Assembly (NCBI GenBank): GCA_046729135.1
Contig: JBKPGB010000078.1
Location: 20,086-84,085, forward strand
DNA: 64,000 nucleotides
Source of the DNA: Thermoproteota archaeon
GTDB taxonomy: Archaea > Thermoproteota > Nitrososphaeria > Nitrososphaerales > Nitrososphaeraceae
Reading direction: 5' to 3'
This document shows positions 57,347-57,640 of the stretch, piece after piece. How positions within the stretch are numbered: the first letter of the stretch is position 1; each line of letters starts with the position of its first letter. The notes beneath the pieces were generated by a model, which made no database searches, was not told where the DNA came from, and worked only from the letters and a program-made list of their open reading frames with translations. Made by a program: the position numbers and the translations under genes.

Positions 57347-57640
57347 AAAATCGATCTACTCTTCTTGTTTTGAACTACCAATTTGTAAAATCGATCTACC
57401 CATTGTAAAATTTGACTACCCATTGACTACCCATTGTAAGATTTGACTACCCATTTGACATTTTGCATCTCTAAATGGGTAGTTAACAGCCATAAATAGT
57501 AGATAAAATTTCTGTACATTGTACGCAGTGAGCGTGAAATGGAGGTTCGTTTTGACTACCCATCATCACCAAAACGTTGATTTACTGCCACGTAATACTT
57601 AGCGAAATTATTTAAAGATTAACGAAATGGGTAGTTAGAA
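57347..57640. repeat. Array of CTACCCAT-core repeats in direct and inverted orientation (iteron-like or operator array)
   Basis: Exact CTACCCAT at 57396, 57416, 57427, 57447 and 57556; inverted ATGGGTAG at 57475 and 57627; degenerate copies at 57356 and 57375; extended consensus about TT(G/A)ACTACCCATT. Confidence 0.9.

Follow-up and report, generated by a model that had tools for sequence, protein, structure and literature searches.

A helically phased repeat array, a conserved promoter-like module and an AAA+ gene in a probable mobile-element-derived insert next to uvrB in Nitrososphaeraceae

The locus between uvrB and cobQ

We analysed a window of 64,000 nucleotides from a Thermoproteota archaeon of the family Nitrososphaeraceae (assembly GCA_046729135.1, contig JBKPGB010000078.1, positions 20,086 to 84,085) and concentrated on an array of short repeats that lies in non-coding DNA between uvrB and the gene of a stand-alone AAA+ ATPase. 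This intergenic region extends from the uvrB start to the 3' end of the AAA+ open reading frame (ORF), i.e. from 57281 to 57716. It contains seven exact copies of CTACCCAT, five of them forward (starting at 57396, 57416, 57427, 57447 and 57556) and two inverted (57475 and 57627), and two degenerate ones, CTACTCTT at 57356 and CTACCAAT at 57375. These copies and their spacings (Table 1) had been described in an earlier sequence-only reading of this DNA, together with a distance of about 80 bp to the AAA+ gene, and we retrieved all of them as described; the AAA+ ORF ends 82 bp from the last CTACCCAT copy. The degenerate copies are true decayed copies, because a near-identical metagenome contig (L293) reads CTACCCTT and CTACCCAT at the matching sites. 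Elsewhere in the window CTACCCAT occurs once, at 27670; the chance expectation is 1.34 copies per window and none of 100 shuffles gave eight.

The array is the sole cluster of the motif in the genome of the window (G000; 2.43 Mb in 223 contigs, 35.5% G+C). The 8-mer occurs there 60 times, for a composition-based estimate of about 52, while ACTACCCAT has 19 occurrences, and the only two-copy pair, on contig C1, lies inside a coding region. The array was found in many independent assemblies and hence is not an assembly artefact, a possibility that had been raised before.

We then compared the arrays of 32 loci. From one forward copy to the next the spacing is 11-12 bp (75 cases), 20-22 bp (115), 31-32 bp (13) or 42 bp (4), counts that are inflated through tandem duplication. 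These are multiples of approximately 10-10.7 bp, i.e. the copies are helically phased. The extended motif is approximately TTnrA-CTACCCAT-T, and the flanking C(-1) and T(+6) are kept in 93-98% of 129 distinct copies. Some arrays have a second motif interleaved with the first, e.g. CTGGACAT, CTCCCCAT or GACTCCCC. The number of copies varies widely, with 3-21 forward and 0-6 inverted copies per locus (range 5-24). For example, L293 represents the same locus with AAA+ 97.9% identical to ours and has 14 forward and two inverted copies, against five and two in the window, and the contig of genome G003 terminates within its array. The copy number of the window may thus be a strain variant or the result of assembly collapse. 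One genome, G007, retains the architecture and the module described below, and has GTACAT(TTT) in the array copies as well as in both copies that bracket the module. Such a concerted switch points to a trans-acting reader with altered specificity.

A few other observations concern the repeats themselves. In another genome (L043, G018:C37, 5749-6044), an ORF of 771 aa has 13 tandem copies of a 24-bp unit that includes CTACCCAT; this looks like a coding repeat that is not related to the array. We considered whether the DNA between the inverted copies is an invertible segment, and rejected this since the forward alignment scores higher (44 versus 29). The ATG of ATGGGTAG opens an ORF of 26 aa, which we rejected as a small protein because its frame is not kept between loci.

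Next to the array lies a conserved core of 243 bp. It is 80-94% identical in pairs of loci whose AAA+ genes are only 39-69% identical at fourfold sites. The core is thus more conserved than the neighbouring fourfold sites, which indicates that it is under purifying selection. The pattern is reversed between L294 and the window: the AAA+ gene (57717-58439) is 97.5% identical at fourfold sites and the core (57473-57716), which is of a hybrid type, only 77%. This indicates recombination breakpoints between the core and the AAA+ gene. The core includes a 34-bp module whose elements match the archaeal consensus for the B recognition element (BRE) and the TATA box, and we read it as a putative archaeal-type promoter directed leftward. 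In the window its predicted direction is through the array and into uvrB. Relative to the predicted start, the copy at 57627 (-) is located at about -40 and that at 57556 (+) at about +30. No conserved RNA structure was detected in the core (alifold energies of -3.8 and -1.4 kcal/mol over 23 sequences), nor did the core give a match above threshold in Rfam; there is no tRNA gene between 45 and 64 kb of the window.

The AAA+ protein had been labelled mini-MCM-like. The label can stand, and RuvB-like fits no less well. The family profile matched RuvB in PDB with an E-value of 2e-10 and MCM2-7 with 2e-9 and weaker, and Foldseek ranked RuvB at the top, followed by Lon, clamp loaders and MCM. In the AF2 model (pLDDT of 78), the whole protein is made up of an AAA+ core, which has a basic beta-hairpin (124-138) ahead of sensor 1, and a lid of four helices; the N-terminal OB-fold/zinc domain of MCM is absent from these 240 residues. 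We found no plasmid or phage relatives beyond generic hits to RuvB and clamp loaders. A full-length AAA+ gene is the right neighbour of the array in all of the 17 array loci with enough sequence, and it is under purifying selection in all 17. The array is not a general feature of the family, which has up to 13 members per genome in Nitrososphaeraceae: orthologues (57-77% identity) and paralogues (41-47%) lack both array and module. The stretch before the AAA+ start (58440-58513) is conserved, with equivalents in 16 loci (gaggttaagattctattaagg...tggaaggtgcttccgg), and is probably the gene's own promoter and leader. The motif has only two hits in the AAA+ upstream regions of 17 loci. In G007 the AAA+ gene beside a GTACAT-type array is split into ORFs of 139 and 101 aa by an in-frame stop or a frameshift (L044, G007:C64, 1618-2339).

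Table 1. Features at the uvrB-side locus (positions in the window)
Feature	Position	Strand	Remarks
uvrB, first gene of uvrB-uvrA-uvrC; left host flank	55295..57274	-	Pfam UvrB_inter, UvrB, Helicase_C, UVR; 97-98% amino acid identity in sister genomes
Conserved uvrB core-promoter stretch	57281..57343	-	87-98% identical in G005, G021, G003, G019
Whole insert: array, core, AAA+, strain-specific extras	57344..60469	.	Right end approximate
Direct array, two decayed and four exact CTACCCAT	57347..57454	+	Spacings 19, 21, 20, 11, 20 bp
First inverted copy ATGGGTAG, closing the direct array	57475..57482	-	One to six inverted copies likewise placed in relatives
Non-repeat core segment	57483..57555	.	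Conserved columns in 23-sequence alignment
Palindrome GTACATTGTAC	57514-57524	.	Inside conserved core segment
GAGCGTGAA box	57530-57538	.	Inside conserved core segment
Forward CTACCCAT copy, ~30 bp downstream of predicted leftward start	57556..57563	+	GTACAT instead in G007
34-bp module CACGTAATA-N11-TATTTAA-N3-TTAA	57589..57622	-	Promoter-like, pointing to array and uvrB
TATTACGTG at predicted start, eleven bases past TATA	57589-57597	-	Module element
TATA TTTAAATA	57609-57616	-	Archaeal BRE/TATA consensus
BRE GTTAAT	57618-57623	-	Archaeal BRE/TATA consensus
Inverted copy immediately upstream of BRE	57627..57634	-	Pairs with 57556 copy to bracket module; GTACAT switch in G007 includes it
Stand-alone 240-aa AAA+ ATPase gene, only gene of minimal cassette	57717..58439	-	Pfam MCM and AAA (weak)

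An insert in one lineage, and its relatives in mobile elements

Comparison of the 5' regions of uvrB across 29 genomes of the same genus revealed repeats only in the closest clade (G000, G003, G005 and G021), in which the N-terminal 120 residues of UvrB are at least 96% identical, and 24 of the 29 lack the array before uvrB. At least 18 other genomes of the genus have uvrB and cobQ as direct, divergent neighbours at 117-656 bp from each other (the shortest spacers measure 117-139 bp), and the spacer has no array. The ends of these spacers, approximately 40 bp next to uvrB and 40 bp next to cobQ, recognisably match both edges of the 3.2-kb region of the window. Since the two genes are adjacent elsewhere and the spacer ends match both edges, the DNA from 57344 to about 60469 has been inserted between the two divergent promoters. 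On the uvrB side, the junction (57343/57344) comes after ...ggaatggaacttaa, and the preceding stretch (57281-57343) is homologous to the uvrB-proximal 40 bp or so of the empty spacers. This spacer is also a hot spot: in L053-L072 it varies from 117 to 656 bp, with unrelated fillers between species of the genus.

The insert varies in content. The minimal version, of about 1.5 kb, has only the array, the conserved non-coding core and the AAA+ gene (G021:C42, L285 and L286), and the window has as strain-specific extras an ODP metallo-beta-lactamase-fold gene and a gene for a 133-aa protein. In G019 and L296, the leader of a primase gene follows the uvrB junction where the window has the array. 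From these junctions and the related loci we reconstruct a fuller island, in which uvrB is followed by a primase-PriX gene pointing to the array and core, then by the AAA+ gene pointing to them from the other side, and by cobQ. The window has lost the primase of this fuller island.

The exact module was found at only six places in 238 genomes of the family, in G000, G005, G007 (two) and G021 (two). A metagenome scan for the module retrieved 48 contigs, mostly from soil samples going by the contig names. Approximately 30 of these have CTACCCAT arrays (class A). Their left neighbours vary between uvrB, a primase gene with a PriX domain, and an unrelated gene (L320, L325 and L327); a PPS-repeat gene is also among them. 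The primase-PriX gene points into the array in L284, L287, L298, L301, L308, L319 and others. Primase-PriX genes are multi-copy in Nitrososphaeraceae (up to 15 per genome), and the array is not a general feature of theirs, as none was seen within 1.5 kb of 20 such loci. In six of the metagenome contigs (L281, L297, L304, L315, L323 and L324) the 34-bp pattern occurs in another conserved context (gcagaCACGTAATATGGTGATACAATATTTAATATTTAAct...), without CTACCCAT arrays and without the AAA+ gene.

A second copy in G021 illustrates how the array and core can move. On contig C131 (L038, 6538-7166), a 620-bp insertion of array and core without AAA+ sits 33 bp upstream of the aIF2-alpha start and is flanked by a 7-8-bp duplication (AAGCAAAC-like); the corresponding empty site is G000:C198:4820-4826. 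The left 200 bp of the insertion are homologous to the 3' end of PriX and the DNA downstream of it in G019. The TATA box of aIF2-alpha is intact at this site, and the DNA upstream of it has been replaced.

Another 12 contigs have the module without an array (class C). In all 12 the module lies 126-141 bp upstream of a minus-strand gene for a 312-aa protein with helix-turn-helix (HTH) and coiled-coil regions. Where the flanks are available, these are elements in which a tRNA gene adjoins the gene of a tyrosine integrase. The replicases are diverse: PrimPol-PriCT1-D5N-S3H (L295), MCM (L289), primase-PriX (L291) and a 601-aa protein of no known kind (L318). Hence, the module, although not the array, also occurs in integrase-bearing elements. 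In L295 (1-172) and L318 (1-100) the tRNA beside the integrase has an apparent internal insert between the D-arm and the remainder, possibly an intron. We did not find an integrase, attachment (att) repeats or a tRNA target in the insert of the window, and integrase and tRNA are present in the array-less L295 and L318. The 3' end of the AAA+ gene had been considered as an attachment site, prompted by truncated AAA+ genes beside the module in L289, L302 and L307; this was dropped because a tRNA gene is the integration site of the array-less elements and a search for a second att copy was negative, as was that for the right boundary of these elements. A scan of viral contigs for paired motifs returned isolated chance hits only, we detected no relative of the primase in viruses, and PADLOC returned no meaningful hit to a defence system. 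Elsewhere in G000, C132:3357-8348 is a mobile-element remnant with an AAA+ paralogue (42% identical), a homologue of the HTH/coiled-coil gene and an integrase fragment, and at least 10 further integrase-like fragments lie on other contigs. Overall, the array very probably belongs to a mobile-element-derived insert confined to one narrow lineage of soil ammonia-oxidising Nitrososphaerales.

What the array may do

The phasing, the conserved flanks, the isolated inverted copies and the switch in G007 together give good support to the repeats being protein-binding sites. They would be phased sites for one sequence-specific DNA-binding protein that coats one face of the DNA, and the same protein would also control the putative BRE/TATA promoter, which two inverted copies bracket. 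Rep proteins on iteron plasmids control their own promoter likewise. The likeliest job of the array would be cis-acting control of the replication or copy number of the element, to which the primase-PriX protein would be recruited from a complete element or from a helper, perhaps together with the AAA+ motor. With the primase gone from G000, its array probably represents a satellite of such a primase-based replication system, or what remains of one. We give an even chance to the repeats being plasmid-style, iteron-type sites. At least three helix-phased direct repeats of about 17-22 bp are present, as in iterons. Iteron-type control is further favoured because the array lies directly downstream of a primase-type replicase gene, because direct repeats are combined with inverted repeats at a putative promoter, and because the origin of pRN1 is just downstream of its replicase gene (PMC4234260). 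The array might then have origin activity, and the AAA+ protein might act as a helicase.

Several observations weigh against iteron-type sites. The cassette has no gene for a Rep or winged-helix (wHTH) initiator, and the AAA+ protein has no sequence-specific DNA-binding domain recognisable in Pfam, the model or Foldseek. The intergenic region has no AT-rich unwinding element beside the repeats: the spacers said to be AT-rich contain only 70% and 68% AT, for a window mean of 64.6%, and the 30 bp richest in AT, the sole stretch above 85%, are the uvrB core promoter. The range of 5-24 copies is more variable than in classical iteron origins. In each of the five loci with enough flank, the primase gene adjoining the array has suffered truncation or a frameshift, and the G000 genome encodes no primase-PriX homologue. 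The class C elements, which have intact replicases, carry the module and lack the array. Moreover, the module is common to elements with unrelated replicases, which fits a promoter better than a replicase-specific origin. Finally, we found no circular contigs. The proposal of the sequence-only reading, an origin of an integrated or captured plasmid-like element with the adjacent AAA+ gene, is partly supported: it holds for the provenance of the DNA, and the missing unwinding element, the missing Rep-type binder and the truncated primases speak against the origin.

These points and the sharing of the module by elements with unrelated replicases favour the main rival, a purely transcriptional role. 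The region would then be the control region of the leftward module promoter, with the inverted copies and the array as repressor operators or roadblock sites; complete cassettes would thereby produce a transcript antisense to primase-PriX, and in the window transcription would continue into uvrBAC. This agrees with the order of BRE, TATA and initiator on the minus strand, with the fixed distance between the module and the HTH/coiled-coil gene in all array-less elements, whichever their replicase, with the inverted copies on either side of the predicted start, and with the lack of an unwinding element. However, the minimal cassette has no repressor gene, phased copies in such numbers far exceed the needs of an operator, and the motif is absent from the AAA+ promoter, apart from the two hits mentioned above. 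We consider an exclusively transcriptional function unlikely.

The array, core and AAA+ gene could also be sufficient by themselves as a mini-replicon, or be a secondary origin that the chromosome has captured, independent of Orc1, with the AAA+ protein as dedicated initiator or helicase reading CTACCCAT. The cassette stayed intact after the loss of the primase, the AAA+ gene is under selection and the core is more conserved than synonymous sites, all of which would fit a chromosomal or selfish replication function. Although we judge this decidedly unlikely, soil ammonia-oxidising archaea would then have their first candidate for an autonomously replicating sequence.

Alternatively, only the core might be functional, and the array a neutral minisatellite, seeded by one or two former binding sites and decaying without a present function here. 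The difference in copy number from the near-identical L293, the variation of unit structures between loci, the decay of the two leftmost copies of the window and the loss of the primase would be expected of such a remnant. Yet the motif and its flanks are intact and the phasing is kept while spacers differ in sequence and length, the motif is retained in isolated inverted copies, and the concerted switch in G007 argues for a trans-acting reader. Hence, neutral decay is quite improbable.

Phased repeats at 11 and 20-21 bp beside a promoter-like module, in variable numbers as in some centromere arrays, recall a partition site of the type of parC of plasmid R1, bound by an adaptor for the segregation of the element. 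However, genes for nucleoside triphosphatases of the ParA, ParM or TubZ type and for small ribbon-helix-helix or HTH adaptors are absent from all cassettes, and the AAA+ protein resembles RuvB or MCM, which makes a centromere-like role very unlikely. The array might instead act at the RNA level, as a leftward non-coding RNA rich in repeats (AUGGGUAG units), which would titrate an RNA-binding protein or be antisense to the primase mRNA: transcription from the module is predicted to run toward the array, and all variants of the motif start with AUG on that strand (ATGGGTAG, ATGTCCAG, ATGGGGAG and ATGTAC). Such an RNA is nevertheless highly unlikely, given that there is no conserved structure or Rfam match, that inverted copies upstream of the promoter would escape transcription, and that helical phasing is a property of DNA.

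The sequence-only reading had proposed, as its other option, a regulator-binding array controlling uvrBAC, i.e. an archaeal damage-response box. The array is on the promoter side, 67-355 bp upstream of the uvrB start, and the putative promoter of the module points into uvrB. However, as described above, most orthologous uvrB loci of the genus lack the array and the ancestral uvrB-cobQ spacer of 117-260 bp is free of it; the array is found at loci unrelated to uvr genes, and no other gene of this genome has a cluster of the motif upstream. A damage operator is therefore extremely unlikely. Lastly, an Orc1/Cdc6-dependent chromosomal origin is virtually excluded: direct and inverted repeats do occur in an intergenic region, near a local minimum of the cumulative GC skew at 56-60 kb, but the skew tracks gene orientation, the locus is a lineage-specific insert, and the single orc1/cdc6 gene (the genome has no second Cdc6_C match) is on contig C205 alongside TTCCAnTGGA dyads resembling the archaeal origin recognition box (ORB), from which CTACCCAT differs, as had been noted before. 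The dyads tttccaatggagg and tttccactggaaag lie upstream of this gene (G000:C205:17150-17320), and this intergenic region is likely the canonical oriC.

To our knowledge, no replication origins or other cis-acting sites have been defined in thaumarchaeal mobile elements, and we know of no genetic tools for ammonia-oxidising archaea. The locus offers a conserved, selected non-coding core, a putative binding-site array with a natural switch from CTACCCAT to GTACAT, and a minimal three-part cassette. These could serve as bait in pull-downs and as a candidate set of origin and replicase for building vectors. The locus also illustrates that a putative promoter and binding array of mobile-element origin can land directly upstream of a repair operon, where they may mislead regulon predictions.

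Comparison with known systems

Iteron plasmids such as pPS10, R6K, P1, F and RK2 (PMC4980987) resemble the array in that direct repeats of about 20 bp lie several in a row on the same face of the helix, that the site recurs in inverted orientation at a promoter, which is a putative one here, and that specificity can switch between related elements, here CTACCCAT versus GTACAT. Unlike these plasmids, the array has no Rep/wHTH gene, DnaA boxes or AT-rich unwinding element; it adjoins primase-PriX and a stand-alone AAA+ gene, is far more variable in copy number (5-24) and is chromosomal. The pRN1 family (PMC4234260) also has a cis-acting element directly downstream of the gene of a primase-type replicase with a PriX-like helix-bundle domain: in pRN1, orf904 encodes the primase-helicase and is followed within 166 bp by the origin. 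Integrated copies in archaeal chromosomes are another shared trait. In contrast, the pRN1 origin is a 100-nt stem-loop and not an array of repeats, and its replicase has its own helicase of superfamily 3, whereas here a separate, convergent gene encodes a RuvB/MCM-like ATPase.

Cryptic integrated elements of thaumarchaea (Krupovic et al. 2019, PMC6563490) resemble our class C elements, which are integrated at tRNA genes and encode a tyrosine integrase and PrimPol-S3H or MCM replicases. They differ from the insert of the window, which lacks integrase, tRNA and att repeats. A term search of the text of that survey gave no mention of the 34-bp module, of repeat arrays or of the cassette of primase-PriX and AAA+.

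Centromeres of the R1 parC type have repeats phased in multiples of 11 bp around a promoter, for which the module is the putative counterpart here, and differ from the cassette, which encodes neither a partition NTPase nor an adaptor. Finally, the oriC3/WhiP model of Sulfolobus describes an extrachromosomal origin captured by an archaeal chromosome. The locus resembles it in that non-coding DNA bearing repeats lies together with a replication-type gene of mobile-element origin at a chromosomal site, with a likely canonical Orc1 origin elsewhere.

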